The notes beneath the pieces are model-generated. The model saw nothing but the letters and a program-made list of their open reading frames with translations. It had not been told where the DNA came from and did not search any database. Below, one piece after another: positions 23,211 through 50,263 of a DNA stretch of 59,038 nucleotides (within the stretch, counting starts at the first letter, position 1; each line of letters starts with the position of its first letter). The position numbers and the translations under genes were made by a program. The DNA comes from Candidatus Saccharimonadales bacterium (GTDB taxonomy: Bacteria > Patescibacteriota > Saccharimonadia > Saccharimonadales > DASWIF01): positions 1 through 59,038 of the forward strand of contig DASWIF010000040.1 of assembly GCA_036397795.1 (NCBI GenBank), in the 5' to 3' direction.

Positions 23211-23579
23211 GTGAATCAAAAGTTTCTAAATAAGAAGACAGTAACAGCCGCCACGACGCTGGCTACCGCCGCCTCTTTTTTGGGCGGAACGCGGGTGTTT
23301 GCCCAGATAGATACTGGCATTGATGCGGCCGATCCAGGTCAGAACGAAGGTGAACTGGAAGATATCATTCAAAACGTGATTAATGTTTTGCTATTTGTCG
23401 TCGGTGTGGCTGCTGTTGTCATGCTGATCGTCGGCGGCATTCGCTACGTGGTCTCGGCCGGAGATCAGCAAGCCGTAGCTAACGCTAAAAACACGGTCCT
23501 TTACTCGATCGTTGGCGTGGTAGTAGCTTTTCTGGCGTTCGTCGCCGTTGAATTTGTGTTTAACCAGCTACAAGGCTGA
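23211..23579 (+). CDS. T4SS pilin paralog 5
   Basis: ORF track, 122 aa, GTG start with RBS AAAAGGAG. VINVLLFVVGVAAVVMLIVGGIRYVVSAGDQQAVANAKNTVLYSIVGVVVAF. Confidence 0.8.
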   Translation: MNQKFLNKKTVTAATTLATAASFLGGTRVFAQIDTGIDAADPGQNEGELEDIIQNVINVLLFVVGVAAVVMLIVGGIRYVVSAGDQQAVANAKNTVLYSIVGVVVAFLAFVAVEFVFNQLQG

Positions 23580-23604
23580 GCTTAAGTAAAAAATAAATAT
23601 AAAA

Positions 23605-23629
23605 GCGACCGGGTAATCCGGTCGTTTTT
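23605..23629. terminator. Bidirectional intrinsic terminator between pilin operon and hsp20
   Basis: Stem CGACCGG (23606-23612) / CCGGTCG (23618-23624), loop GTAAT. TTTTT follows downstream and AAAA precedes upstream. Confidence 0.7.
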
Positions 23630-23647
23630 ATATTTCTTAAGCCTAAA

Positions 23648-24115
23648 CTACTTAATCTCGATTTTCTTAACTGTATCTTGCTTGAGTTTAGTAAAGCCGA
23701 TAGTCAACACACCGTCTTTTAAGACCGCGTCAATTTCTTCTTCCTTGACCGCTACCGGCAGAGTAATAGTCCGGGAAAACTCGCCCCAATAGCATTCCTG
23801 CAGATGAAAGTTCTGAGCGTCGGTTTCGTCGCCGGAACTTAAGGTGCCGCGAATCGTCAGCGTATTGTCAGAAATACTAACGTCCAGATCCTCTTTGTTA
23901 ACACCAGCTACGCGAGCCTTAACCACCAGCCGGTCGGTAGTCTCAAACACATCGAGCGCCAGTTGGCCGGGCACTGTATCCTGGGAATCTTCGGACCAAT
24001 CGGACGAGGTGTCGTCAGCGCTCTTGTCGGCTGGCGTGTCCTCATCTAAAAAAGCTGAGGCCAGTTCGTCCTCAATTCCTAATAAATCATCATCTTGTTG
24101 TTGGCCTCTGGCCAT
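23648..24115 (-). CDS. Small heat-shock protein, Hsp20/alpha-crystallin family
   Basis: ORF track, 155 aa. LALDVFETTDRLVVKARVAGVNKEDLDVSISDNTLTIRG ... FSRTITLPVAVKEEEIDAVLKDGVLTI. Confidence 0.9.
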   Translation of the reverse strand: MARGQQQDDDLLGIEDELASAFLDEDTPADKSADDTSSDWSEDSQDTVPGQLALDVFETTDRLVVKARVAGVNKEDLDVSISDNTLTIRGTLSSGDETDAQNFHLQECYWGEFSRTITLPVAVKEEEIDAVLKDGVLTIGFTKLKQDTVKKIEIK

Positions 24116-24897: not shown

Positions 24898-24936
24898 GAG
24901 TCACCTCTTATGTCTGGTGTATAATGCCGGTGTCGT

Positions 24937-25024
24937 GGAAGGGTGACCGAGCGGTTGAAGGTACCGGTCTTGAAAACCGGCGTGGGGAAACTCACCGTGG
25001 GTTCGAATCCCACCCCTTCCGCCA
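24937..25024 (+). tRNA. tRNA-Ser (anticodon UGA), CCA encoded
   Basis: Hand-folded. Acceptor GGAAGGG/CCCTTCC, anticodon stem CCGGT/ACCGG, loop CTTGAAA, long variable arm, T-arm GTGGG-TTCGAAT-CCCAC. Confidence 0.9.
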
Positions 25025-25394
25025 CGTCCCAGCAAGCTCCAAACTGTACGCTTTCAGAATCACTGAAGATTGTTTCTGAAAGCTAGCTAGTTTTCCACTG
25101 CTGCTCCTTAAAATTCATCAAACAGCTTTGCTTGGTTTGATGAATTTAGGAAAACAAAATTGGAAACCAAGCCTTGGCTGCTTACAATTTTTAAGAGGAG
25201 GAATTGCGGGGTGGCTTTTCAAGCTTTGCCCTTAAGCAAAGTGGCTGCCACTATAGCCATTTTCGACTAAGGATAGGTCCAAGTTCATAATTGTTTACGA
25301 AGCAAACATTTTCAAAGGAAAACGTAAAAGTCCACTGGACTTTTACGGGCTTCAGGGGTAAACCCCTCCAGCTCTTGGGAGCATTCTCATCATG

Positions 25395-25441
25395 CCGTAC
25401 AATCTTTGAGACCACTAATGACGGTCTCAAAGATTGTACGG
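25395..25441 (+). repeat. Perfect 19-bp hairpin abutting the 5' end of tRNA-Ser(GCU)
   Basis: CCGTACAATCTTTGAGACC (25395-25413), 9-nt loop, GGTCTCAAAGATTGTACGG (25423-25441). The last 2 nt are nt 1-2 of the tRNA. Confidence 0.8.
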
Positions 25442-25532
25442 AGAGGTACCCAAGAGGCTGAAGGGGACGGTTTGCTAAATCGTTAGAGGGAAGCAATTCC
25501 CTGCGGGAGTTCGAATCTCCCCCTCTCCGCCA
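25440..25532 (+). tRNA. tRNA-Ser (anticodon GCU), CCA encoded
   Basis: Hand-folded. Acceptor GGAGAGG/CCTCTCC, anticodon stem ACGGT/ATCGT, loop TTGCTAA, long variable arm, T-arm GGGAG-TTCGAAT-CTCCC. Confidence 0.9.
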
Positions 25533-35027: not shown

Positions 35028-35355
35028 TCCTGCATGTCCGGCTAAGGTCGCCTCCACCACAAAAATGCGCCGGTCGCGGCGCTTGGCGACCGACTTTTTG
35101 AATCACAAAAAGTAGGCAAAAACTCTTCGGGCCAGGCTTGTTCTTGAGGCGTTCATCGTCAAGGTCAACAACAGCTTGCGGAACTCGCTCACTAATCGTT
35201 CGCTCAAACAGTCCTCGCCTGATAGCTGTTGACTTGACACTCACTCTCAGGAACTCGCCAAAGGCCCAGCAAATGAAACGCCTAGTTGTCTATGCCAAAA
35301 ACCAAAATTAAACTCAGACAAGTAAAAAACTATATAACTAAATTATATAATCTTT

Positions 35356-35643
35356 TTACTCCGCCAGTGAGGATTGCCTAGCTTCTCTGCGCTTTGCCAG
35401 GTTTTCAGCTGCTAGTTTAGCTGACCAAGCGTTTTTCCGATTAGTTGGCCAGCCAGCAGCATAGGGCTCGGTGTTGGTTTCGATATCTCCATTTGTAGGA
35501 ATCGGGTTGGGGCCTTCAACTTCAGGCCGGGGGCGTTCTATGTGCCGTTCATCAATCTCAAACCAAACTTCGTTTTCGCTACCCGACTGCATGCCTTCCA
35601 TAAGCCCTTCTGTATTTGCTCTTGGCTTCATTATACCGAACAA
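35356..35643 (-). CDS. Hypothetical small protein
   Basis: ORF track, 95 aa (TTG; ATG at 35631 is possible). No recognisable motif. Confidence 0.45.
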   Translation of the reverse strand: MFGIMKPRANTEGLMEGMQSGSENEVWFEIDERHIERPRPEVEGPNPIPTNGDIETNTEPYAAGWPTNRKNAWSAKLAAENLAKRREARQSSLAE

Positions 35644-37060: not shown

Positions 37061-37639
37061 GTGGAAGAAGATACCGGTACAAATATCCAGCAGGAAGATT
37101 TAATCAGCGACGATGTGGCGAGCGCTATTACCTCAGCCATGAAAGACGAGCCGCCAATGAGCGGATCAGTCGCTTCGCCGACGGTAATAAAACCGCAGCG
37201 CAATAATTTGCAAATACAAACGGAATCATCTGGCCCGGCGTCTTCGGACTCGCCCGAGCCAGCCCTACCGCCGCCGCCCGCTCAACCTCCGGTGCAGCCA
37301 ACTCCGGCCGTCGAGCCGGACAACCCCCCTGCTGGTAACACCGATGATATCGACAATCGCGGCAGCGGCAATTTCAGCGAGCTGTATGACATTAAACAAG
37401 AAGCCCTGCAGCAATTAGGGCCGTTAGTTAAGCATCTTGACCAGTCACCGGAAGACCGATTCGACACCTTGCTGATGATGCTCAGAGCATCGGACGATCC
37501 GTCTTTGATTAAGCCGGCTTATGACGCCGCCCAAGCGATAAAAGACGACAAAAAGCGGGCAGAAGCCCTGCTCGACGTAGTTAACGAGGTCAATTACCTA
37601 ACTCGGGCGCAGAACCAGAACTCAACCGACCAGAATTAA
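37061..37639 (+). CDS. Hypothetical acidic/proline-rich protein
   Basis: ORF track, 192 aa, GTG start, low-complexity Pro-rich centre. Confidence 0.5.
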   Translation: MEEDTGTNIQQEDLISDDVASAITSAMKDEPPMSGSVASPTVIKPQRNNLQIQTESSGPASSDSPEPALPPPPAQPPVQPTPAVEPDNPPAGNTDDIDNRGSGNFSELYDIKQEALQQLGPLVKHLDQSPEDRFDTLLMMLRASDDPSLIKPAYDAAQAIKDDKKRAEALLDVVNEVNYLTRAQNQNSTDQN

Positions 37640-37677
37640 AGCCTTGAACGCTTTAAAGGGTGCCGGTAAAATAAATT

Positions 37678-37702
37678 CCCGCCCGCCTTTTAGGCGGGCG
37701 GG
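37678..37702. terminator. Bidirectional terminator hairpin (10-bp GC stem)
   Basis: CCCGCCCGCC / GGCGGGCGGG with loop TTTTA. The flank is T-rich in the minus orientation (AATTTATTTTA). It lies between convergent genes. Confidence 0.7.
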
Positions 37703-37833
37703 TCAAACGCATTTTTGTTTGTAGTATTTATTGTAACGTACATTTTATTTGTTCAAAGCCAATAACCAACTTTATTGTAATTAGTACAATTCAATCTCAA
37801 TCTCTAATCTGTTAGACACTTTTACTTGCCAGT

Positions 37834-39074: not shown

Positions 39075-40715
<1,641 letters not shown>

Positions 40716-40820: not shown

Positions 40821-41090
40821 TTATTTACCTACCGTTGCTAAAATATCTTCTTCTTTGACCAGGATATATTCGCTGCCATCCAGTTTCACTTCCGTGGTCG
40901 AATACTCTTTGTATAAAATTTTGTCGCCGGATTTGACGCTTTTAACGTCTTTGCCGACAGAAATGACTTTGGCCATAACGGGCTTTTCTTTGGCGTTGTC
41001 CGGCAGGTAGAGTCCAGAAGCCGTTTTGGCCTCCCGTTCGACCGGCTCGGCTACGACCCACTCAGCCAGGGGGGTAATTTTGGCGCTCAT
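40821..41090 (-). CDS. groES: Co-chaperonin GroES
   Basis: ORF track, 89 aa. ITPLAEWVVAEPVEREAKTASGLYLPDNAKEKP. Confidence 0.95.
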   Translation of the reverse strand: MSAKITPLAEWVVAEPVEREAKTASGLYLPDNAKEKPVMAKVISVGKDVKSVKSGDKILYKEYSTTEVKLDGSEYILVKEEDILATVGK

Positions 41091-41139
41091 AACTTATCTT
41101 CTCCTCCTAAAGTTAAACTCGTGTTCTTCTAAAAATATT

Positions 41140-41166
41140 TTAGCACTTGGTTAATGTGAGTGCTAA
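41140..41166. promoter_or_regulatory. CIRCE operator (HrcA binding site)
   Basis: TTAGCACTT-GGTTAATGT-GAGTGCTAA versus consensus TTAGCACTC-N9-GAGTGCTAA. Located between the groES promoter and its start codon. Confidence 0.9.
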
Positions 41167-41178
41167 TTTCAGTTAAAG

Positions 41179-41207
41179 ATAGTACAAACCACCGGCCGGT
41201 CTGTCAA
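41179..41207 (-). promoter_or_regulatory. groESL promoter TTGACA-N17-TACTAT
   Basis: -35 is the reverse complement of 41202-41207; -10 is the reverse complement of 41179-41184. Confidence 0.7.
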
Positions 41208-41286
41208 GGTTTCGGTCGGTAATCTAGTGTAGTCTAGGGCCGCGATACCCGGCGGTTAAGCCAGCAAGCATAAGGACTATGCGTAG

Positions 41287-41315
41287 TTGACTCTGACCCC
41301 ATATTTTGCTAGTAT
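41287..41315 (+). promoter_or_regulatory. Promoter-like TTGACT-N17-TAGTAT facing the GC-rich structured segment
   Basis: TTGACT at 41287-41292, 17-nt spacer, TAGTAT at 41310-41315. Confidence 0.45.
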
Positions 41316-41321
41316 ATCTAC

Positions 41322-41716
41322 CCCGGAAACGAAGAGCCGTTAAACCACTTCGTCGCACTTTATTTAGAATATCAGCCCCGCCTTCGTCGTTCCGCCGCAA
41401 GCCGGAGTCTCCTCCCACGACTCTAGCATAGGCAATCTCTGTCGCAGAGAGAGCGATGAAGGTATCGACCGGCGAGGCTCTCCCGCGCTGGCGGAGACTC
41501 GCTGATCGAGATCCGGACGCGCCGGTTGAGTTGAGGTCTCCGTTCCTGGCGGGACAGCTCAAGCTGCCTGCAAGAGATTTCCTCAACCGCGCGTTCCGGA
41601 TTAAACCCGGGATTATTACCAATAATCCTCTCTATTAAGCTCAGGTTACCGATAGTTTTGGCCTCACCCGCCACCGCCGCAAATTATCGATAAAAACCTG
41701 AGCTTCTTTCTTTTCT
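41322..41716 (+). ncRNA. Candidate structured ncRNA of about 400 nt, unknown family (strand tentative)
   Basis: No credible ORF. 57-70% GC by my per-line counts, against about 50% background. Long complementary segments: 41472-41483/41493-41502, 41515-41536/41581-41597, 41610-41617/41621-41628. Closing stem 41639-41647/41695-41703 is followed by TTCTTTCTTTTCT. Confidence 0.3.
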
Positions 41717-41720
41717 AAGC

Positions 41721-41750
41721 TTGACAGAGGCAGCACTTAGTGGTTATCTT
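41721..41750 (+). promoter_or_regulatory. Promoter-like TTGACA-N18-TATCTT upstream of the GC-rich ORF pair
   Basis: TTGACA at 41721-41726 and TATCTT at 41745-41750. Confidence 0.35.
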
Positions 41751-42064
41751 TAATGCCATATCGAAGGCGCCTGGTCGGTGCGCAACAAAATCGGCCATTT
41801 TTGGTGCTTTCGAAGGCACTTTTAGAGACTGGAGGTAAGCAAGCAATTTGTCCGCCTACGTGGGAGGAATATCCTTTGGCAGACAGAATTCGGCCTCGTG
41901 ACGCCCGCGTCTTTCGACGTACGTCAAGACGTGATAAGCCACGGAGCACTCGCCGCCAGACGATGCAGGCAGTCCTTGCCACGCGGCGTCTGAGGTGAGA
42001 TCAAACCGCCCAGGGTAGCGACACCCTGGCCGGTTCAGCCAGTGCAAGGAAGGGGAACCTAAAA

Positions 42065-42286
42065 ATGGTTCTGAACGTCCGAAATCGGATCGGAACATCG
42101 TCCGGTTCGGTCCAGATCATGCTCGACGGCTCACTTCTCTCGGGGACGTATCGTCCAGCATGTGGGGGTGACCTAACTCGTCTCGAGATCGGGGGCAAGA
42201 CCATCCTCGGCGTGTTCGAGACGTGGTTCGACGAAGAGGTCTTCAACCAAGCTTCAGGGGGAGCCAAGCGGAGTTCACGCTCGTGA
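42065..42286 (+). CDS. Hypothetical 73-aa protein in the GC-rich patch
   Basis: ORF track. SD-like AAGGAAGGGG upstream. The sequence looks protein-like (VQIMLDGSLLSGTYRPACGGDLTRLEIGGKTILGVFETWFDEEVF). Confidence 0.35.
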   Translation: MVLNVRNRIGTSSGSVQIMLDGSLLSGTYRPACGGDLTRLEIGGKTILGVFETWFDEEVFNQASGGAKRSSRS

Positions 42287-42288
42287 CC

Positions 42289-42717
42289 ATGACCACCCAC
42301 GACGCAGACGTCTACATCGTCGACGTCATAGGTCTCAGCAGTCTCCACATCGGCCGCGAGGTGGAGATCAAGGACGACGGCGGTTTGAGCCTCAGGTTGG
42401 CCATCAACTACCAGGCTCTGAGCAGGACGTGCAACGTCAGACGGCTGAGTCGGCTGATCGGAGAGATCCGGAGCCAGACCATTCAGGACATACCAGTTTG
42501 CTGTGCGGCGCTCGTTCTGCGCGTGCCGTATGGCACAGGTATTCAGGAAGCCGTCGACGAGTTCGTCAAGCTGCTGTGCCAGCGCATCGCTGCGCTCGAC
42601 GAAATCGAGTTCGAGGCCCTGTTCTCGCCTCGGTACTTCGAGGACAGCGGGACCGCAGTCCACGGCCTGCCCTCGACCAACGATTTCGATCAAGAAGTCG
42701 TGGTAGCCCTCACCTGA
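42289..42717 (+). CDS. Hypothetical 142-aa protein in the GC-rich patch (possibly once fused to the upstream ORF)
   Basis: ORF track 42223..42717, trimmed to ATG 42289, which lies 2 nt after the upstream stop. MTTHDADVYIVDVIGLSSLHIGREVEIKDDGG.... Its composition is more protein-like than the 230-aa mirror ORF on the minus strand. Confidence 0.4.
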   Translation: MTTHDADVYIVDVIGLSSLHIGREVEIKDDGGLSLRLAINYQALSRTCNVRRLSRLIGEIRSQTIQDIPVCCAALVLRVPYGTGIQEAVDEFVKLLCQRIAALDEIEFEALFSPRYFEDSGTAVHGLPSTNDFDQEVVVALT

Positions 42718-42946
42718 TCAGAGGCGCGTAAAGGCTATCAATTCGCCTTGGCGAATACGCTCACGTGACCCCCACCTCGGGTCAACGTTGCTTACCTCCA
42801 AGCTCGTCTGGAGCTGCTTAAGTGTAGGTTCTACCCCTGCTTATGCAGCCTTCAGACCAAAACCAGGGCCTAGGCTCTCGGATATAACAGGTTTCAATGG
42901 TTCCTAACGGAACTGTTACCCTGAGATATCACGAGAACCAAGGCCC

Positions 42947-43801
42947 TTAATTTTTTTTAGGACTACTTCCACTCATGAAGGTACTCGTTAAGTGTTCTAT
43001 TTCTTCTCTTAGCTGACGGGATCTTGGATCAGGTGATTCAAATCTCGTACTAAGGAACCATCTGCCTACTCGTTGGGCCTTACTATTTGAGCGGGCTGAA
43101 TTTATGGTGTCTCTATTCCCTACTCCCCGCCCAATAATTGAATCTTCTCTATACCAAACTGGTAGCTCGGCGTTAGCAGTTCCACCGCCGGCAATAGTTA
43201 TATGCTTGGGGATCATCCAGTATTTACCTGATATGTTAGCGCGAGGAAAAGCCCGCCTAAAAATAGCCTTTGCGATATCGAGGGTGTCCCCAGATGTCTT
43301 AACCTCGTCAATTATCACTACATTTTTTTCGTCAAATATAGAAGGTTTAGTCATCACATCTGAGCCAACTTCGCCTGCGCCGTTGTCCTGAACTGGTCTT
43401 TGCAAAAAGAGTGCTCTAAGTTCATTAATTCTATGAAAGTCTATGCGATCGGCGTTGATATGGGACAGATTAGATCCTACCTCATCTCTCCATTGTTCTC
43501 GATCAATGTTTACAAATTTTATATCCGGCCTGGGAGTGTCATTTCTGACGGTATCCCACATTTGATCCATCATCCATGATACCGGGCGGGCTGACTTGTC
43601 TAGAAACACGACATAGTCCGGATGGCTATCCGCCAAGGTGTCTATCAACCTCTCGGTGCGTCTTAGATATTCGGCTCTGAGCTGTTCATCAGATACATCT
43701 TCACCAGCGCGACGTATGCCAGTTAGAATCTGATATTGAAAATTCTCAGAGGATTCTTCTGCATTCGACTGCTCATTGTCTGTAGGAGATTTTAATGACA
43801 T
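42947..43801 (-). CDS. Phosphoribosyltransferase (PRTase)-domain protein with an N-terminal extension
   Basis: ORF track, 284 aa. PRPP-binding-type motif VVIIDEVKTSGDTL (about 43281-43322). Confidence 0.6.
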   Translation of the reverse strand: MSLKSPTDNEQSNAEESSENFQYQILTGIRRAGEDVSDEQLRAEYLRRTERLIDTLADSHPDYVVFLDKSARPVSWMMDQMWDTVRNDTPRPDIKFVNIDREQWRDEVGSNLSHINADRIDFHRINELRALFLQRPVQDNGAGEVGSDVMTKPSIFDEKNVVIIDEVKTSGDTLDIAKAIFRRAFPRANISGKYWMIPKHITIAGGGTANAELPVWYREDSIIGRGVGNRDTINSARSNSKAQRVGRWFLSTRFESPDPRSRQLREEIEHLTSTFMSGSSPKKN

Positions 43802-43828
43802 GTTTGTTTTGGCTGACTTAACCCATAT

Positions 43829-43857
43829 ATAATACCAAATAACTAGTAAAAAGTCAA
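43829..43857 (-). promoter_or_regulatory. Promoter TTGACT-N17-TATTAT for the PRTase-domain gene
   Basis: -35 is the reverse complement of 43852-43857; -10 is the reverse complement of 43829-43834. Confidence 0.5.
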
Positions 43858-43879
43858 TATTTGTATTATAATATTTGCT

Positions 43880-44173
43880 ATGGAACTATCTGGACGACCA
43901 GCCCAAGATGAGACTGTCCCCATTCGGCGGGGCGTACGGGGCATAACCAAACTGTTGATTGGTATGGTGCTGGACAACGCGGCCGATCGTTTGATGAGGA
44001 ATCCCGCCACCGGCGAGCCATGGAATCTTTGGCCAGATTTGGGCGACGGCCCAAAACCAGACCACGAGCCAAACGAAGTTTCACTTGACCCTCAGCGGGT
44101 TATTCCGGAATCTCTTAAGGGCGTGACGGTTAAAAAAACTGATGAAAAGGGTAGTTTAACCGCCGAATTTTAA
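43880..44173 (+). CDS. Hypothetical 97-aa protein, probably leaderless
   Basis: ORF track. TATAAT at 43867-43872 ends 7 nt before the ATG. The gene's 3' end overlaps the convergent 427-aa gene by 4 nt. Confidence 0.4.
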   Translation: MELSGRPAQDETVPIRRGVRGITKLLIGMVLDNAADRLMRNPATGEPWNLWPDLGDGPKPDHEPNEVSLDPQRVIPESLKGVTVKKTDEKGSLTAEF

Positions 44174-45453
44174 GCGGCTAACTTCTTTTCAAACATTGTG
44201 TCGTAGTGGCTTAAGACTGAATCAACAGTTGGTAATTTGAATCTGTTGTTAGCGGTTAATCTCATTTTGACCATTTGAGCATGCTCTGTAAACTTACGTT
44301 TCAAATAAGTATCGATATTTTCATTGGCTTCGCGGTCGTTACTAATAGCCTCTTTGGCACTGATTATTGTTATGGGTCGAGCATACCATCCACTTGTTTT
44401 ACTGAAGCCGTCGATATGTCCAATATCAGTTATTGATTCGGTCCCAGCTCCATCGGTTTTACATTGCAGAAAGTGGCGCCCGCTTCTATCAGCCACTAAG
44501 ATGTCAATCGACTGTTTATTGTCCCATATGCCCCCTGTCATCTCGTGGCGCGGATAATCTTCTCGAGGGTAAGCGCTCCTGACATATGACGATGCGTATA
44601 ACTGGTGGCGCATTATGTAGTCTCTATAGGCTAATGTAACTAACCATTCAAAGGCTATGCCGGGCAAAACCTGATCGGATTTTATCCAGTCTGTGTAAGT
44701 ATTAATGTATCGAATCTGTGCTCGTCTGAAATTATTTTCGATGTCGCTAGCTTTGTGTCCGGCCCTTGCTTCCAAGTGAAGTTTGTAAAACTCAATATCA
44801 AATTGTCGTCTGAGCATTGAAGTCACGGCCTCGGGATTTTCGTGCAATCTATCAACGTCCAGCTTCGACAGGATTTTCGAGGATTCCAGAGCTGATTTGC
44901 CTGCACTCTCATACCCTGATCCCGGTATCATCAAAAAGATGCCGGCTTCTTGCAGCATAGCCGCCATAACATTATTAAACGTGTGTCGTTTTGAAGGTCC
45001 CTCAATGAGGCGGCTAATTTTGATTATTGATTCAGGATCCAGCTCGTTTATAAAGCCGGCAGCGTTTTCAGTGTTGTTAGAATTTCTTCTGCTGCCGACT
45101 AGAGCCGGTACGAGAGCGGTCACATACTCCGCCGTATTAGCCTCAGGTTCCAACACTCCGAGCGACCAATAAGCTTTGTGGGCGACGATTTTGGCTTCGT
45201 GATCGGTTATTGTTGGCAACCGTGAGGGGTGGGCGTTATTAACAATGAAATTATTCTTAAGAAATTTTTGATTTGAACTAAACCTCGTTTTAGGAGCTAA
45301 ACCACTGGCTGGGTCTTGCACCGCAAGTTTACCTAGCGCGGTCACGCGGTCGTTGTTAAGTCTTTCAACTTCAGTCCAAAAATTTAGGGGTGTTATATCC
45401 GGGTTACCGACAAGCTCCTCAAGGTTCATCCTCTGAGGGGCTTGTTGAGTCAT
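44170..45453 (-). CDS. Hypothetical 427-aa protein with a C-terminal PD-(D/E)xK-like nuclease motif
   Basis: ORF track. AFEWLV ... SIDILVADRSGRHFLQCKTDG (about 44455-44512) fits E...D...(E/Q)xK. The gene is about 37-42% GC by my line counts. Confidence 0.55.
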   Translation of the reverse strand: MTQQAPQRMNLEELVGNPDITPLNFWTEVERLNNDRVTALGKLAVQDPASGLAPKTRFSSNQKFLKNNFIVNNAHPSRLPTITDHEAKIVAHKAYWSLGVLEPEANTAEYVTALVPALVGSRRNSNNTENAAGFINELDPESIIKISRLIEGPSKRHTFNNVMAAMLQEAGIFLMIPGSGYESAGKSALESSKILSKLDVDRLHENPEAVTSMLRRQFDIEFYKLHLEARAGHKASDIENNFRRAQIRYINTYTDWIKSDQVLPGIAFEWLVTLAYRDYIMRHQLYASSYVRSAYPREDYPRHEMTGGIWDNKQSIDILVADRSGRHFLQCKTDGAGTESITDIGHIDGFSKTSGWYARPITIISAKEAISNDREANENIDTYLKRKFTEHAQMVKMRLTANNRFKLPTVDSVLSHYDTMFEKKLAA

Positions 45454-45579
45454 CTCAGGCTAGCCTTTTTGTTTTATTCGGCATGTTAGAGTCTAGTGTA
45501 AACAAAAACTTTCGCTTTTGTCAAAACCCTCGTGCTTTACATTAATCGTCAGGCAGTGAAATAATGGTAGCTATCTAAC

Positions 45580-48500
45580 TTGGGGGTAAGCTTGGTGCGC
45601 ACTACATATTTTGTTCGTCCAAATATTCGGCTGTTCAATCTGATAGCAGCGGCAGTTTTACTGTTAACGTTGTTGGTGCCGTTTGCTGGTGTAGTTAAAG
45701 CCGCACCGCCATCGACCACGATTAGCTCGAGCGCCCAAACCTTGGGTAACCTAAATAACTTACTCGGCGTTAACGCCGGGACTTCAGGTATTGTTTATTC
45801 GCGCAAGAATCCGGGCGTGCTGTGGCTGGTGAACGACCAGCGCGATCGGCCGGATGGCGGCAGCCAAACGTTGTACGCTATCGACCCGGCCGCTTGGCGG
45901 GTGCTGGCCCGCTACACCGTTACGACTGCCGCTGGCTCGCCTTATAGCTGGACGGATATGGAAGACATGGCTACCGGCCCCGGCGGTTCGACCGGCTGGT
46001 ATCTTTACTTGTACGAGAATTTACCCGGCGTTGGCACGAATCATTTATTACGGATCGAGGAACCAATCGTCACGCTTTCGCAGCCGACTAATAACACCGC
46101 CACGGTAGCGGTTGATAGAGACGTCAGCTTGAATTTTTCTCTTAGCTCCAATGTGGAAGTTGAGACACTGGCTTATGACAGTACAACCGACACGGCGCTG
46201 TTCGTTGAGCGCCGCCGTTCTAATTCTGGCTGTACGATGTCGGCCGACGATACGCCTAACCGAACGTGGAAGGCCGATAACTTTGCCGCCCAAGTTAGCG
46301 TAGGCTCCACCGTCCAGTTGACTAGTACCAGCGGCGTGGCCGGGCGGCCGCTGGGCGCGCCTAATAACCCGTTTAATATGATTGGCGGGGGTGATATTTC
46401 CGTCGACGGACACGTGTTTGGGGTTAATACCGCTCCCCGGTTTGGCAACTGCACTAACCGCGACGCTTATGCCACTCTTCGCTACCGAGAAGACGGACAG
46501 ACGTGGGATCAAGCCTTGGCCGCTCAGGTCCAGATTGCTTATGGCGATTCTCGGCAGGCTTTAACCTTTAATTCGGAGTCCTTTGCCTTCGCTACCGATA
46601 TGAGCCATATTTTATACGGGCCGGAATTTGGCGGCAGTGGCGGGGTACTGTATCGCAAGAACATAACTTACGTGCCGCCAACTGGCACACCCCCACCTCC
46701 ACCCCCGCCCGACGGTGACCCAGTACCGACGACCGTAGTAGCCCCAGGCTCCAGTTGGCGCTACAACGCCAGCGGAACCGATCTTGGTACGGCCTGGCGC
46801 GGTGTCGGTTACAGCGACGGTTCGTGGCCGGTCGGCAATACCCAGTTTGGCTTTGGCGAAAACGACCAAGCGACCACCATCCCCAACAACGGCATCACTT
46901 CTTACTACCGCACAACCTTTGACGTGGCCGATATCAGCCAGGTGACGGCGCTTGATCTCAATTTAGTCCGCGATGACGGCGCGGTAGTCTACGTCAACGG
47001 CGTGGAAGTTAACCGCCAAAGCATGCCCGGCGGCACGGTTACATTTGGCACTCTGGCCAACTGGACTCCAAACGCAGAAGAAAATGCCTGGCACGCCGCC
47101 AGCCTTAGCCCGGCTAATTTGGTTAATGGCGCCAATACGCTGGCGGTTGAGGTTCATAACTCCAGCGCTTCCAGCTCGGACGTAAGTTTTGATCTTGAAC
47201 TCATCCTGACGGCGACCGACGAAGGTACGCCACCACCGCCACCACCGCCACCTCCTCCGCCCACCGGTTTTAGCGTGGTAGCGGCCGCCGGCGATATTGC
47301 CAGCTGTTCCTCGCCCGGCGACGAACAAACAGCCTCGGTAGTTAGTAGTATATTCGCCAGCGGCAGTGGCAGCGTAGCGACGGTAGGCGACCACGCCTAC
47401 AATGACGGCACGACTGCCGAATTTGCCAATTGCTACGATCCAACCTGGGGCGAATTCAAAGATATTACTTATCCGGCGGTAGGCAACCACGAGTACCACA
47501 CCAGCGGCGCCACGCCGTATTACAACTACTTCGGCGCCCGGGCGGGCGACCCGACTCAAGGCTATTACTCCTATGACATCGACGCCAATTGGCACGCGGT
47601 CGTACTCAACTCAATGTGCGCGGAGGTTGCCGGTGGCGGCTGCGGCGCCAGCAGCGCCCAGACCCAATGGCTCCGAGCTGATTTAGCGGCTAATTCTGAC
47701 AAGAATGTCCTGGCCTATTGGCACCACCCCCGCTTTACCAAGAACAACTATAACGACCACTTAAATGTTCAACCGCTGTGGCAGGCACTGTATGATTTTG
47801 GCGTTGATTTGGCATTAGCTGGCCACGAGCATCACTATGAACGTTACATGCCGCTGGACGCTAACGGTCTACCGGATTCAAACTTTGGCATCCGGGAATT
47901 CATAGTCGGCACTGGCGGAATTGCTCTCCGGCCGCAAATGCAAACGCCGTCGGTTTACTCCGAGACCCGCAACTTCACCGATTGGGGTGTGCTCAAGCTG
48001 ACCCTGACGGCTGACAGCTACGCCTGGGACTTTGTCCACGTGGCCGGTGGTACATATACCGACAGCGGCAGCCAAGCGGTCCATGGCGCTCCGTCAACAC
48101 CTCCGCCCCCGCCTCCGCCGGCCGTGGAGGATTTGCCAATTGATCCCGGCTCGGCCTGGCTCTATAACGACAGTGGAGCTAATTTAGGCACTGCCTGGCG
48201 TGGCGCCGGCTACGATGATAGCTCGTGGTCTAATGGCCCGGCCCAACTGGGCTTTGGTGACGGCGACGAGGCAACGGTAACTATAAAAAATGGCATTACC
48301 ACTTACTTTAGGAAGAAATTCAATGTTAGTGACGTCTCAGCCATCAGCGACCTGACGCTCAATCTTGTCCGCGATGACGGTGCCGTGGTCTACCTAAACG
48401 GCGTTGAAGTTGTTCGGTCCAACATGCCGAGCGGCACCATAAACTTTGACACCAACGCGGCCTCGACGATTGCCGGTGCCGACGAAAGCGCCTGGAACGT

Positions 48501-48993
48501 CTTTACCGTCAGCAAATCTAGCCTGGTAAACGGTACTAACACCATCGCGGTAGAGATTCACAATAACGGCAGTACCAGCTCGGATATCAGTTTTGACCTG
48601 GAGTTGATCGCCAATACGGCTCCAACGCCTCCGCCGCCCGGGCCGGATACGACTCTGCCCGAACCGTTTTCCGGTTTTACGGCTGGCACGGTCTTTAACG
48701 GGCCGAGCGTCACCTTGAGCGGCACGGCCACCGATAACGTCGGCGTCACGCAAGTCAAAGTTGGTGTCAGGCAACGCTTTGGCTCACAACTGTGGTTGCA
48801 AGCCAACGGAACCTTTGCCGCTAGTACTATCAGGCACAACGCCACCGTCACCAACGCCGGCAGCCAGTCGGTCGGCTGGTCTTACTTTATTGCCAACCTG
48901 CCATCCAATGACTATTTGATGTCGGTCTATGCTATCGACGCCGCTAATAACTGGGGACCGATAGCCAGCTGGGTGACTTTCTCAGTTAATTAG
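45580..48993 (+). CDS. Large secreted multidomain protein: calcineurin-like metallophosphoesterase core flanked by two copies of a beta-sandwich domain, poly-Pro linkers, C-terminal Ig-like domain
   Basis: ORF track, 1137 aa. The start is uncertain (TTG 45580, TTG 45592 or GVG-context GTG 45595). TM/signal LFNLIAAAVLLLTLLVPFAGVVKA. Phosphoesterase motifs: GDIASC, VGDHAYNDG, GNHEY, WHHPRF, GHEHHYERY. Repeated domain at about 46741-47215 and 48141-48612. Confidence 0.8.
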   Translation: MGVSLVRTTYFVRPNIRLFNLIAAAVLLLTLLVPFAGVVKAAPPSTTISSSAQTLGNLNNLLGVNAGTSGIVYSRKNPGVLWLVNDQRDRPDGGSQTLYAIDPAAWRVLARYTVTTAAGSPYSWTDMEDMATGPGGSTGWYLYLYENLPGVGTNHLLRIEEPIVTLSQPTNNTATVAVDRDVSLNFSLSSNVEVETLAYDSTTDTALFVERRRSNSGCTMSADDTPNRTWKADNFAAQVSVGSTVQLTSTSGVAGRPLGAPNNPFNMIGGGDISVDGHVFGVNTAPRFGNCTNRDAYATLRYREDGQTWDQALAAQVQIAYGDSRQALTFNSESFAFATDMSHILYGPEFGGSGGVLYRKNITYVPPTGTPPPPPPPDGDPVPTTVVAPGSSWRYNASGTDLGTAWRGVGYSDGSWPVGNTQFGFGENDQATTIPNNGITSYYRTTFDVADISQVTALDLNLVRDDGAVVYVNGVEVNRQSMPGGTVTFGTLANWTPNAEENAWHAASLSPANLVNGANTLAVEVHNSSASSSDVSFDLELILTATDEGTPPPPPPPPPPPTGFSVVAAAGDIASCSSPGDEQTASVVSSIFASGSGSVATVGDHAYNDGTTAEFANCYDPTWGEFKDITYPAVGNHEYHTSGATPYYNYFGARAGDPTQGYYSYDIDANWHAVVLNSMCAEVAGGGCGASSAQTQWLRADLAANSDKNVLAYWHHPRFTKNNYNDHLNVQPLWQALYDFGVDLALAGHEHHYERYMPLDANGLPDSNFGIREFIVGTGGIALRPQMQTPSVYSETRNFTDWGVLKLTLTADSYAWDFVHVAGGTYTDSGSQAVHGAPSTPPPPPPPAVEDLPIDPGSAWLYNDSGANLGTAWRGAGYDDSSWSNGPAQLGFGDGDEATVTIKNGITTYFRKKFNVSDVSAISDLTLNLVRDDGAVVYLNGVEVVRSNMPSGTINFDTNAASTIAGADESAWNVFTVSKSSLVNGTNTIAVEIHNNGSTSSDISFDLELIANTAPTPPPPGPDTTLPEPFSGFTAGTVFNGPSVTLSGTATDNVGVTQVKVGVRQRFGSQLWLQANGTFAASTIRHNATVTNAGSQSVGWSYFIANLPSNDYLMSVYAIDAANNWGPIASWVTFSVN

Positions 48994-50263
48994 ATTTAGC
49001 CAATAATTCTTCGGCGACCGCTCGTTCTGACCATTTGATTTTCTGATCGCCGATTACTCGGTATGTTTGGTGGCCGATGCCGGCCAGTAATATCGTGTCT
49101 CCCCGTTTTGCTAGCTCCATTGCTTTGGCGATAGCACCCCGCCGGTCGCCGACTTCATAAATCTCGGCGCCGTCGACTACGCTGTCAGCCCCTTGCAGTA
49201 CAGCGGCCCGAATCGACAGCGGGTTCTCGCTGTAAGGGTCGTCGTCAGTCACGATCATGACATCGCTAAGACGGGCGGCGATTTTGCCCATGAGGGGACG
49301 CTTGCTGGCATCTCTATCTCCGGTGGCGCCGAACACGGTGATAATTCGTCTCTTAGTTACGCCCTGGAGGGTCTCTAACACGTTCTTGAGCGCGTCGGGC
49401 GTATGAGCATAGTCGATAATGATGTTGAACCCTCGTTTTGTCGGCAAGTTCTCCATCCGGCCCGGTACTTGCTCCAGGTTCTTAAGACCTTGGCTAATAA
49501 CCTCCGGCTCCAAGCCCAAGCCGTGGGCGATGGCCGCGGCGCAGAGCGCGTTATAAGCGTTGAATTTGCCGGTCAGCTTTAGTTTGACCTTGATTAAGGC
49601 TCGTTCCAGCTTGAGTTCTAACACCGAACCGTGCGGGCCCAGCTTGGCGGCGGCTATCCGGCAGTCGGCATCCGGATCGACACCGTAGGTTATTACCCGG
49701 TCTTTTGGCTCGAACTTGTCAAAAAAATGAAACCACTCATCGTCGCGGTTGAGAATATGCAGACGAGCCTTTCTTCTAAAGAGCTTGCCTTTAGCGGCGG
49801 CGTAAGCATCCATCGACCCGTGCCAATCAAGATGGTCCTGCGTTAAGTTGGTAATGGCCGCTACCTCGATCGGGATGCCCCATATGCGGGATTGGCTGAG
49901 CGCGTGCGAGGTAGTCTCCAGTATGACCCAATCAACCTGGGCTTGCTTGAACTGCTTTAGCAGCTTAAATAGGCGGAACGGGTCGGTCACGGTCATGTTG
50001 GTGTCGTTCGGGGTTTGTCGGTCGCCGACCTGGTAAAAAGCGGTCGTACTTATTCCGACCCGCCAGCCTTGTTGTTGCAGGATCTTGCCCAGTAGAGCCG
50101 CCGTTGTAGTCTTGCCGTTGGTGCCGGTAATGGCCACTACTTTAAGCGACCGAGCGGGCAGGCCGTAACGAAGGTTGGCCGCTATCGCTTGCAGCCGATG
50201 ATAGGCGGGCAAAAGGGGTTTTGCCAGCGAAATCGGGACTATCCGTTTTAACCAAGCCATCAT
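48986..50263 (-). CDS. murE: Mur ligase, MurE-like (UDP-MurNAc-L-Ala-D-Glu:diamino acid ligase), short N-terminus
   Basis: ORF track, 425 aa. ITGTNGKTTTA, IDYAHTPDAL, TDDDPYSENP. Confidence 0.8.
   Translation of the reverse strand: MMAWLKRIVPISLAKPLLPAYHRLQAIAANLRYGLPARSLKVVAITGTNGKTTTAALLGKILQQQGWRVGISTTAFYQVGDRQTPNDTNMTVTDPFRLFKLLKQFKQAQVDWVILETTSHALSQSRIWGIPIEVAAITNLTQDHLDWHGSMDAYAAAKGKLFRRKARLHILNRDDEWFHFFDKFEPKDRVITYGVDPDADCRIAAAKLGPHGSVLELKLERALIKVKLKLTGKFNAYNALCAAAIAHGLGLEPEVISQGLKNLEQVPGRMENLPTKRGFNIIIDYAHTPDALKNVLETLQGVTKRRIITVFGATGDRDASKRPLMGKIAARLSDVMIVTDDDPYSENPLSIRAAVLQGADSVVDGAEIYEVGDRRGAIAKAMELAKRGDTILLAGIGHQTYRVIGDQKIKWSERAVAEELLAKSN

Follow-up and report, generated by a model that had tools for sequence, protein, structure and literature searches.

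A candidate structured non-coding RNA beside groES in Saccharibacteria, with possible base pairing to the adjacent operon

The 59,038-nucleotide (nt) contig DASWIF010000040.1 of Candidatus Saccharimonadales bacterium, an uncultured member of the Saccharibacteria (TM7), carries beside groES a GC-rich segment of the plus strand (41316-41716) that is non-coding and probably gives rise to a discrete non-coding transcript of about 400 nt. Throughout, the window means this whole stretch of DNA. Rather than standing alone as a gene, the segment opens a larger structured module that reaches ~42946, and units of similar make-up occupy the same site in five related genomes. As the best explanation we propose a lineage-specific, structured, base-pairing small RNA (sRNA) that would control the neighbouring operon, a full mechanism to which we assign a probability of roughly 0.4.

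The only open reading frames (ORFs) within the segment are Arg/Pro-rich, 41-132 amino acids (aa) long and found on both strands. A sliding profile of codon periodicity, strong only from ~42270 to 42720, shows none in 41316-41716. Neither a concatenated six-frame translation of 41200-42070 (nothing at E <= 1 among 5.8 billion proteins) nor searches of the local ORFs against Pfam, NCBIfam, PADLOC and PHROGs returned a match. An initial annotation of the window had described the segment as an unclassified RNA candidate without credible ORF, and this description holds; homology to a decayed protein gene, which it had named among the findings that would count against its proposal, is absent from all six frames.

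Known RNA families were equally negative. Searching the whole window with cmscan and Rfam 15 at gathering scores recovered only 4 tRNAs, all outside the segment, and lowering the threshold to E <= 10 on both strands of 40900-43200 added four chance-level matches (snoRNA sR17, a CRISPR direct repeat, STnc410 and DUF805b). No riboswitch, leader or type I antitoxin family of Rfam matched; the models for OLE, GOLLD, ROOL, HEARO and raiA gave no match at E <= 10, and ARAGORN found no transfer-messenger RNA (tmRNA) in the window and nothing resembling a tRNA in the segment. The cmscan searches of both strands and ARAGORN agree with the failure, by eye, to fit the segment to RNase P RNA, tmRNA, signal recognition particle (SRP) RNA or 6S RNA.

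The dense self-complementarity of the segment goes beyond its composition. Its minimum free energy (MFE) on the plus strand is -163.9 kcal/mol, compared with -119.4 ± 6.3 kcal/mol for dinucleotide-shuffled sequences (z = -7.0; 0/100 shuffles as good). The minus strand reaches a z of only -3.2, and G-U pairing therefore favours the plus strand. In a scan of the whole window with RNAfold (392 windows of 300 nt, mean z -0.79, standard deviation 1.67), 41401-41700 on the plus strand ranked 7th of 392 with z = -6.6, within the top 2%. From the shuffle test and the scan together, the folding is real and exceptional, though other structured spots exist. The predicted fold is a chain of hairpins (Table 1), among them a long one that pairs GGACGCGCCGGTTGAG (41515-41530) with CCTCAACCGCGCGTTCC (41581-41597). 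Every string that the initial annotation had quoted lies where it was placed, and the G+C counts were reproduced (34/60 at 41401-41460 and 42/60 at 41461-41520, against a whole-window G+C of 0.501).

The promoter scan recovered the predicted promoter P1, with the addition of a TG extended -10, and the position of the -10 hexamer would place the RNA start near 41321. At the other end, the proposed terminator stood in part. The 11-bp closing stem and a U-rich tract are present, with GCTCAGGTT (41639-41647) opposite AACCTGAGC (41695-41703) and followed by TTCTTTCTTTTCT (41704-41716), but a simple terminator scan does not call the element because of its 47-nt loop and C-interrupted U-tract. We infer that the segment is transcribed as a discrete unit.

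Table 1. Predicted features of the RNA unit and the downstream operon (window coordinates).
Feature	Position	Strand	Description	Basis
Conserved upstream box AGCAAGCATAAG	41263-41274	+	~13 nt upstream of P1 -35	
Promoter P1	41287-41315	+	TTGACT-17 nt-TAGTAT, TGc extended -10	Promoter scan
Candidate non-coding RNA	41316-41716	+	~395-401 nt; hairpin chain ending in terminator	
5' motif CCCCGGAAAC	41321-41330	+	Family pattern yGCCC(A/G)AAA, directly after -10	
Hairpin with exposed loop	41404-41424	+	6-bp stem; pyrimidine-rich loop UCCUCCCAC (41410-41418; anti-Shine-Dalgarno motif)	MFE and centroid structures
Hairpin	41472-41502	+	GCGAGGCTCTCC (41472-41483) / GGAGACTCGC (41493-41502)	Folding
Long hairpin, ~97 nt	41509-41605	+	Arms 41511-41530 / 41582-41601, inner hairpin enclosed	Fold; inverted repeat I2
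Small hairpin	41610-41628	+	GGATTATT (41610-41617)-ACC-AATAATCC (41621-41628)	Centroid structure
Terminator-like element	41637-41716	+	11-bp perfect stem AAGCTCAGGTT / AACCTGAGCTT, inner hairpin, then UUCUUUCUUUUCU	Inverted repeat I8
Promoter P2 of downstream operon	41721-41750	+	TTGACA-18 nt-TATCTT	Promoter scan
Purine-rich leader element GAGACTGGAGGTAAGCAA	41825-41842	+	5' partner of long-range pairing	Inverted repeat I1
Leader hairpin	41850-41884	+	Shine-Dalgarno GGGAGG (41862-41867) in loop, TTG start (41876) in 3' arm	
ORF1, 40 aa	41876-41998	+	MADRIRPRD..., net charge +12	N-terminus common to L083, L085, L090
73-aa ORF	42065-42286	+	Preceded by GGAAGGGGAA (42048-42057)	
142-aa orphan gene	42289-42717	+	Starts 3 nt past previous stop; G+C at codon positions 1/2/3 = 0.62/0.39/0.79	
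Pyrimidine-rich 3' element TTGCTTACCTCCAAGCTC	42788-42805	+	3' partner of 41825-41842	
Structured 3' tail of operon	42718-42946	+	z = -5.1 for 42601-42900 (+); z = -6.9 for 42300-42946	

The comparison with relatives carries the argument beyond a single genome. GroEL (39075-40715, minus strand) is at most 79% identical to those of the GTDB species representatives retrieved, all of them Saccharibacteria or Patescibacteria metagenome-assembled genomes, and the closest proteins in the collection of 5.8 billion reach 85-87% identity. Looking up the loci of the ten closest GroEL relatives gave five distinct unit-bearing loci (listed with their parallel layout as L083/L084, L085/L086, L088, L090/L091 and L092), or six with the window, and in each of the five a unit of 367-428 nt occupies the corresponding site in the same orientation. 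The surrounding layout is also shared: 2-3 small genes with a third-position G+C of 0.58-0.84 run on the strand opposite groES, and the gene-free gap before them measures 830-907 nt in the relatives and 857 nt in the window (41208-42064). Its groES-proximal part folds well in each locus (operon-strand minima of z -3.5 to -7.1), with the operon strand usually reaching a lower z than the opposite one (L083, L085, L088 and the window, 4 of 5 syntenic gaps). The module order is RNA, terminator, P2, leader and hypervariable small ORFs.

Signals at both ends of the predicted RNA recur with their spacing. The 12-nt box upstream of P1 is identical in the window, L085 and L090, appears in L083 as the variant AGCAAGCGCTAG, and across 1.25 Mb of loci its pattern is found only at these syntenic sites. 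In the same four loci it stands correctly spaced before a -35 of the form TTGAnn, 17 nt and a -10 (TAGTAT, TACTAT or TATATT), so that box and promoter are kept where the flanks are unalignable. The 5' motif yGCCC(A/G)AAA follows the -10 in the window, L083, L085, L090 and L092. In all five relatives the unit closes, in the same place, with a perfect stem of 8-12 bp and a run of 5-6 U. Just past this terminator, relatives share the -35 of a second promoter and a -10 of the TGC-TTAAGT type. Position, predicted promoter, 5' motif and predicted terminator are conserved across the six genomes, and we conclude that the segment is, as judged from these shared signals, one member of a small syntenic family of non-coding units apparently bounded by promoter and terminator.

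The family appears narrowly distributed. L087, L089, L094 and L097-L100 lack the unit or have no clear one (the contig of L096 ends inside groES), a two-motif scan of 80 loci together with a scan of ~100 for the P1 box did not detect it at this site elsewhere, and a metagenome scan with the alignment of the small proteins returned only its own contig. Each family RNA folds well individually, but the RNA bodies are unalignable and the family is small and diverged, so neither a consensus structure nor covariation could be obtained within the RNA; for the pair L085/L090, RNAalifold retained 42 pairs, 7 with double changes, which is too little for a covariation claim. The original proposal of an unclassified RNA of about 400 nt with its own promoter and terminator is supported, now also by five syntenic relatives.

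In four of the five relatives (L083, L085, L088 and L090) a gene of 142-199 aa lies beside groES on the groES strand. Its called start falls within the first 14 nt of the RNA in L090 (1689-1702, opposite strand), and in L085 (9006-9073, opposite strand) the called start sits inside the 5' end region of the RNA or slightly upstream of it. Such overlaps would make the 5' untranslated region (UTR) of the gene antisense to the RNA start, and these starts may be mis-called.

The operon that follows the RNA unit is itself strongly structured. A structured leader of ~160 nt precedes ORF1, whose N-terminal pattern M-x-D-(R/P/K)-(V/I/E)-(K/R) is shared with L083, L085 and L090, and the stem of the leader hairpin that holds the ribosome-binding site covaries across five loci, with pair 5 being CG, GC or TA and pair 3 CG or TA (pairs counted by a hand-anchored script). 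In L083, L085, L088 and L090 the ORF1 stop and the ORF2 start overlap inside the conserved AAGGGGAAG. In the window, ORF1 is in frame with the 73-aa ORF and separated from it by a single TGA (41996-41998), 66 nt ahead of the next ATG; this TGA may be read through or may stem from a recent nonsense mutation. Even where GroEL is 85% identical, genomes encode small proteins here that share no sequence relationship. The 142-aa protein found no homolog in a word-indexed search, had no true homolog when 1.84 billion cluster representatives were searched exhaustively with HMMER (besides itself, only a 2393-aa tandem-repeat artefact came up), aligned with the relatives' small proteins at a non-significant E = 0.19-0.35 (hhalign), and gave an AlphaFold2 single-sequence model with a predicted local distance difference test score of 42. 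The maximum 19-residue Kyte-Doolittle hydropathy of the downstream ORFs is -1.08 to 1.25, and no hydrophobic membrane peptide is encoded.

A second long-range signal joins the two ends of the operon mRNA. The leader element at 41825-41842 and the 3' UTR element at 42788-42805 are the arms of an 18-nt inverted repeat whose perfect core spans 13 nt, a length that 0/300 shuffles reach. The operon 3' end is strongly structured in the relatives as well, and with G-U pairs allowed a positionally equivalent leader motif, differing in sequence, pairs with the 3' region over 16 nt in L085, 12 in L088, ~20 with a slip in L090 and 10 in L092; in L083 a site adjacent to the leader motif does so over 11 nt. 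Counting Watson-Crick pairs only, these runs shrink to 8-10 nt (p from 0.03 to 0.55; 0.03-0.05 in L085, L090 and L092, not significant in L083 and L088), and non-cognate leader/tail pairs reach 7-12 nt, with a mean of 8.4 compared with 10.0 for cognate pairs. On these counts a 5'-3' mRNA fold-back like that of hok has good support in the window and is only suggestive in the relatives.

The link between RNA and operon was sought through an exposed, pyrimidine-rich loop. In the window this loop, UCCUCCCAC, is predicted to be unpaired with a probability of ~0.99, and a CU-rich motif lies within the first 12-28% of all six RNAs, with unpaired probabilities of 0.47-0.95 in the relatives, compared with 0.34-0.43 over whole RNAs. 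Together with the adjacent G at 41419, the loop (41410-41419) can pair with the ribosome-binding region CGUGGGAGGA (41859-41868), which as CGTGGGAGGA sits in the loop of the leader hairpin and is its perfect complement. The RNA has no other Watson-Crick match of at least 10 nt to the 1230-nt module, and this 10-mer coincides with the Shine-Dalgarno (SD) sequence of ORF1. At the ORF1/ORF2 junction, two segments of the L083 RNA pair with 22 contiguous nt, and the junction is matched by a 12-mer in L090 and a 9-mer in L092. Comparing L083 with L090 revealed one compensatory position (CCUUCC/GGAAGG vs CUUUC/GAAAG), the only one seen. Energies of the RNA/target duplexes gave p values from <= 0.005 to 0.035; pairing was measured by counts of exact runs and by short-target duplexes, whole-length RNAduplex being uninformative for long inputs. 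Taken together, these pairing statistics are only suggestive. The same loop also matches the groES SD of the window over 8 nt perfectly; groES was considered as a target and set aside, the match being confined to the window and not conserved in the relatives.

The exposed loop and its matches to the SD and the junction lead us to favour an anti-SD, loop-initiated repression of the adjacent operon, a regulatory pairing that is a hypothesis with partial support. Mechanistically, the RNA would be transcribed divergently from groES from its own sigma-70-type promoter P1 with its extended -10, and transcription would end at the intrinsic terminator. The RNA would form the first unit of a conserved module that continues with the terminator, P2, the leader, the basic ORF1, the hypervariable ORFs and the structured 3' UTR, the last of which would fold back onto the leader in the operon mRNA. 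The loop UCCUCCCAC would then base-pair with the purine-rich translation-initiation region of the operon, starting as a loop-loop contact because the target CGUGGGAGGA sits in the loop of the leader hairpin, and this pairing would repress translation of ORF1 and, via coupling, of the ORFs behind it.

Several observations weigh against this interpretation. Strong folding is not confined to the segment, the adjacent coding part and 3' UTR reaching z values of -4 to -7, and promoter-like sites are not enriched in the region (4 vs 2.1 ± 1.3 in shuffles). The closing stem in the window is no textbook terminator, its U-tract being broken by a C. In nhmmer searches, the profiles of L085, L090 and L083 fail to find the window, L088 or L092, and MAFFT alignments of six such diverged RNA bodies are unreliable. 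As for the pairing, non-cognate combinations of RNA and leader also reach perfect matches of 8-13 nt, and since random 10-11-mers are common in GC-rich sequences, the 10-mer of the window is significant only by its location. The window RNA moreover lacks the ACUUCCCC motif of L083, L085 and L090, though its target GGAAGGGGAA is present, and the architecture of the hairpin that carries the CU motif differs between loci.

Some of these observations would also fit a long cis-acting leader or attenuator, in which P1 drives the operon, the element at 41637-41716 terminates conditionally and the anti-SD acts within its own transcript. Unusual structure extends over the entire plus strand between 41316 and 42946, the unit is invariably placed immediately upstream of the operon and on its strand, the U-tract is imperfect in the window, and complementarity between anti-SD and SD is equally workable in cis. 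We regard this arrangement as unlikely, given that the relatives carry canonical terminators, that in all loci examined a second promoter (conserved -35, 17-nt spacing [18 in the window], extended -10) follows directly, and that no known riboswitch or leader model matches. Alternatively, the RNA could be structured for a purpose unrelated to the operon, as a protein-binding RNA, a sponge or an SD mimic or competitor, with incidental complementarity. Any CU-rich loop matches any SD, as the non-cognate pairs and the 8-nt groES match illustrate, and the RNA has several C-rich loops. Such a role is distinctly improbable: the relatives do not conserve that groES match, the unit is strictly linked to the operon in 6/6 genomes and went undetected at this site in the other loci examined, and the RNA body changes faster than a typical protein-binding scaffold would.

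Equally improbable is that the segment is a non-functional structured spacer, a GC-rich remnant of foreign or mobile DNA whose promoter and terminator strings arose by chance or were left over. This would account for the lack of conservation of the RNA body, for promoter-like matches no more frequent than in shuffles, for the hypervariability of the region from the murC-like gene to groES and for a 12-nt inverted repeat that flanks the segment. It leaves unexplained why length, strand, folding, P1 box, spacing, 5' motif and terminator are kept despite saturated neutral sites, and the unit is present once in the window (insertion sequences and miniature inverted-repeat transposable elements, MITEs, being expected in multiple copies), has no target-site duplication and matches nothing in phages, plasmids or viral contigs. 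A protein-coding or decayed gene is very unlikely. ORFs of 60-132 aa do exist, among them a 60-aa plus-strand ORF (41456-41638) and a 132-aa minus-strand ORF (41224-41622) in the position of the relatives' groES-side gene. The latter, like the local ORFs generally, has a flat G+C by codon position (0.56/0.57/0.54), compared with 0.62/0.39/0.79 in the real neighbouring gene; the relatives' groES-side proteins have no tblastn match in the segment and their genes lie beside the RNA unit instead of replacing it, only the L090 start overlapping (14 nt); and no ORF is conserved inside the six units. Finally, size and folding fall in the range of RNase P RNA and tmRNA, yet it is hardly credible that the segment is a divergent version of one of the known housekeeping and ornate RNAs (RNase P RNA, tmRNA, SRP RNA, 6S, OLE, GOLLD, ROOL, HEARO or raiA): no family matched at the gathering score in the window, cmscan of the five relatives at that score gave one tRNA only, these families gave no match at E <= 10 in the window, ARAGORN called no tmRNA, and a unit absent from most Saccharibacteria loci examined is a poor fit to an essential RNA.

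The proposed base-pairing sRNA resembles several described systems in part, and its membership in the RNAIII/Rsa, type I antitoxin or hok/sok families is not supported. In Gram-positive bacteria, Staphylococcus aureus RNAIII (514 nt) and the Rsa sRNAs bind SD sequences through C-rich (UCCC-type) apical loops. Judged from its sequence, the candidate RNA is likewise a multi-hairpin molecule of several hundred nt with its own promoter and terminator, and exposes in loops pyrimidine motifs complementary to GGAGG-type ribosome-binding sites; to our knowledge, no Hfq-type chaperone is required in this lineage, as for RNAIII and Rsa. It differs from them in having no sequence or structure similarity, no Rfam match and no encoded peptide, in its putative target, the adjacent operon rather than a dispersed regulon, and in a body that is unalignable at 85% GroEL identity. 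IstR-1/tisB, OhsC/shoB, Orz/zor and AgrB/dinQ are type I systems whose antitoxin sRNAs are encoded beside, not opposite, their targets. The candidate shares with them a gene adjoining the putative target, complementarity of 10-22 nt at the leader or translation-initiation region, and a heavily structured target mRNA with a small leading ORF. Unlike these antitoxin sRNAs, which measure 60-140 nt, it is ~400 nt long, and no small hydrophobic membrane peptide is encoded (maximum 19-residue score <= 1.25), ORF1 being strongly basic.

The operon mRNA recalls hok/sok, where 5'-3' pairing inhibits by fold-back, the leader ORF mok is translationally coupled and Sok is a 64-nt cis-antisense RNA. Pairing between leader and 3' UTR (41825-41842 / 42788-42805) and, in the relatives, an ORF1 that ends on the ORF2 start codon are the points of likeness; the candidate RNA gene, in contrast, lies upstream in the same orientation, a Hok-like peptide is missing, ORF1 of the window stops 66 nt before the next start, and the lineages are unrelated. 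The c4 antisense RNA of phages P1 and P7 (immI operon), ~77 nt and processed from the same transcript, offers a further parallel, since its gene too precedes, in the same orientation, the ribosome-binding site that the RNA blocks (putatively so in our case), but the phage context is missing here: phages, viral contigs and PHROGs were all negative. With OLE, GOLLD, ROOL, HEARO and raiA the candidate has size class and dense secondary structure in common; the hallmarks of these families are highly conserved nucleotides together with covarying helices, whereas the RNA body described here has almost no sequence conservation and matched none of their models at E <= 10. We rate the RNA as what would be a new family of a known kind, the structured base-pairing sRNA, and the wider module with its 5'-3' mRNA fold-back as more novel.

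The genomic setting is a variable island on a contig that turns up again in the ENA assemblies ERZ27256807 and ERZ27256803. Transcription of groES (40821-41090, minus strand) would start from a promoter at 41207-41179, and the next solid gene past the region encodes a 284-aa PRTase-like protein (42947-43801, minus strand). The ~1.85 kb between the two genes has 56-60% G+C, compared with 42-48% in the immediate flanking windows, and the region from the murC-like gene (48986-50263) to groES is hypervariable among relatives. Blastn and nhmmer comparison of 41091-42946 with 80 GTDB Saccharibacteria groEL loci, and blastn comparison with the loci of the closest relatives, matched only the CIRCE/groES promoter region, and homology to related loci ends at the groES -35 box (41207). 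Phage and plasmid collections searched with blastn in distant mode gave no match to the region, and three pattern scans of viral contigs gave nothing, or nine chance matches without flanking similarity.

Between groES and its promoter lies a CIRCE-type inverted repeat, TTAGCACTT-N9-GAGTGCTAA (41140-41166), which across dozens of Saccharibacteria loci is the only intergenic stretch that blastn finds conserved; the terminator scan wrongly took it for a terminator. The 12-nt inverted repeat TCTGTCAAGGTT / AAGCTTGACAGA (41200-41211 / 41717-41728) brackets the RNA unit exactly, both arms being the -35 regions (CTTGACAGA) of outward promoters (groES and P2), with no visible target-site duplication. 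The remainder of the island (42947-48993) holds three genes. The PRTase-like protein weakly matches ShosT, a protein of the Shosta defence system (E = 5e-4), the sole homolog of a 427-aa protein is in L088, with a further weak and partial match in L001, and a GC-rich gene for a 1137-aa protein shows weak metallophosphoesterase similarity only and has no counterpart in any related locus.

Elsewhere in the window, the strongest folding signal (24901-25500, z = -9 to -10.7, both strands) surrounds two tRNA-Ser genes (24937-25024 and 25440-25532) and may extend beyond the tRNAs. Other 300-nt windows with z <= -6 are 2101-2400, 23401-23700, 35101-35400 and 37501-37800, the last largely in the intergenic spacer 37640-37833; these four may be structured RNAs or terminators.

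A broader and doubtful proposal is that the RNA heads an undescribed, fast-evolving, RNA-controlled cassette of hypervariable genes in Saccharibacteria. Such a cassette would place the sRNA beside a polycistronic mRNA locked by a covarying start-codon hairpin and a hok-like 5'-3' fold-back, this mRNA encoding a small basic leader protein and then hypervariable, orphan, acidic small proteins. Its control logic would be that of a type I toxin-antitoxin system minus the membrane-peptide toxin, and, fixed beside groESL, it might serve these epibiotic bacteria in addiction, defence or host interaction.

Should the RNA prove to be only a leader or a spacer, its value would be one of local annotation. 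Saccharibacteria and other Patescibacteria (Candidate Phyla Radiation) have tiny genomes with few recognisable regulators, and a full-text literature search found no paper describing regulatory RNAs in them. If the interpretation as a base-pairing sRNA is true, a conserved ~400-nt RNA bounded by promoter and terminator would be a concrete entry to RNA-based regulation in this lineage, as would the linked mRNA with its start-codon hairpin occlusion and 5'-3' fold-back. Orphan proteins that differ wholly between close genomes are a pattern typical of conflict systems, and for this reason the RNA could signal a new class of modules for addiction, defence or host interaction.

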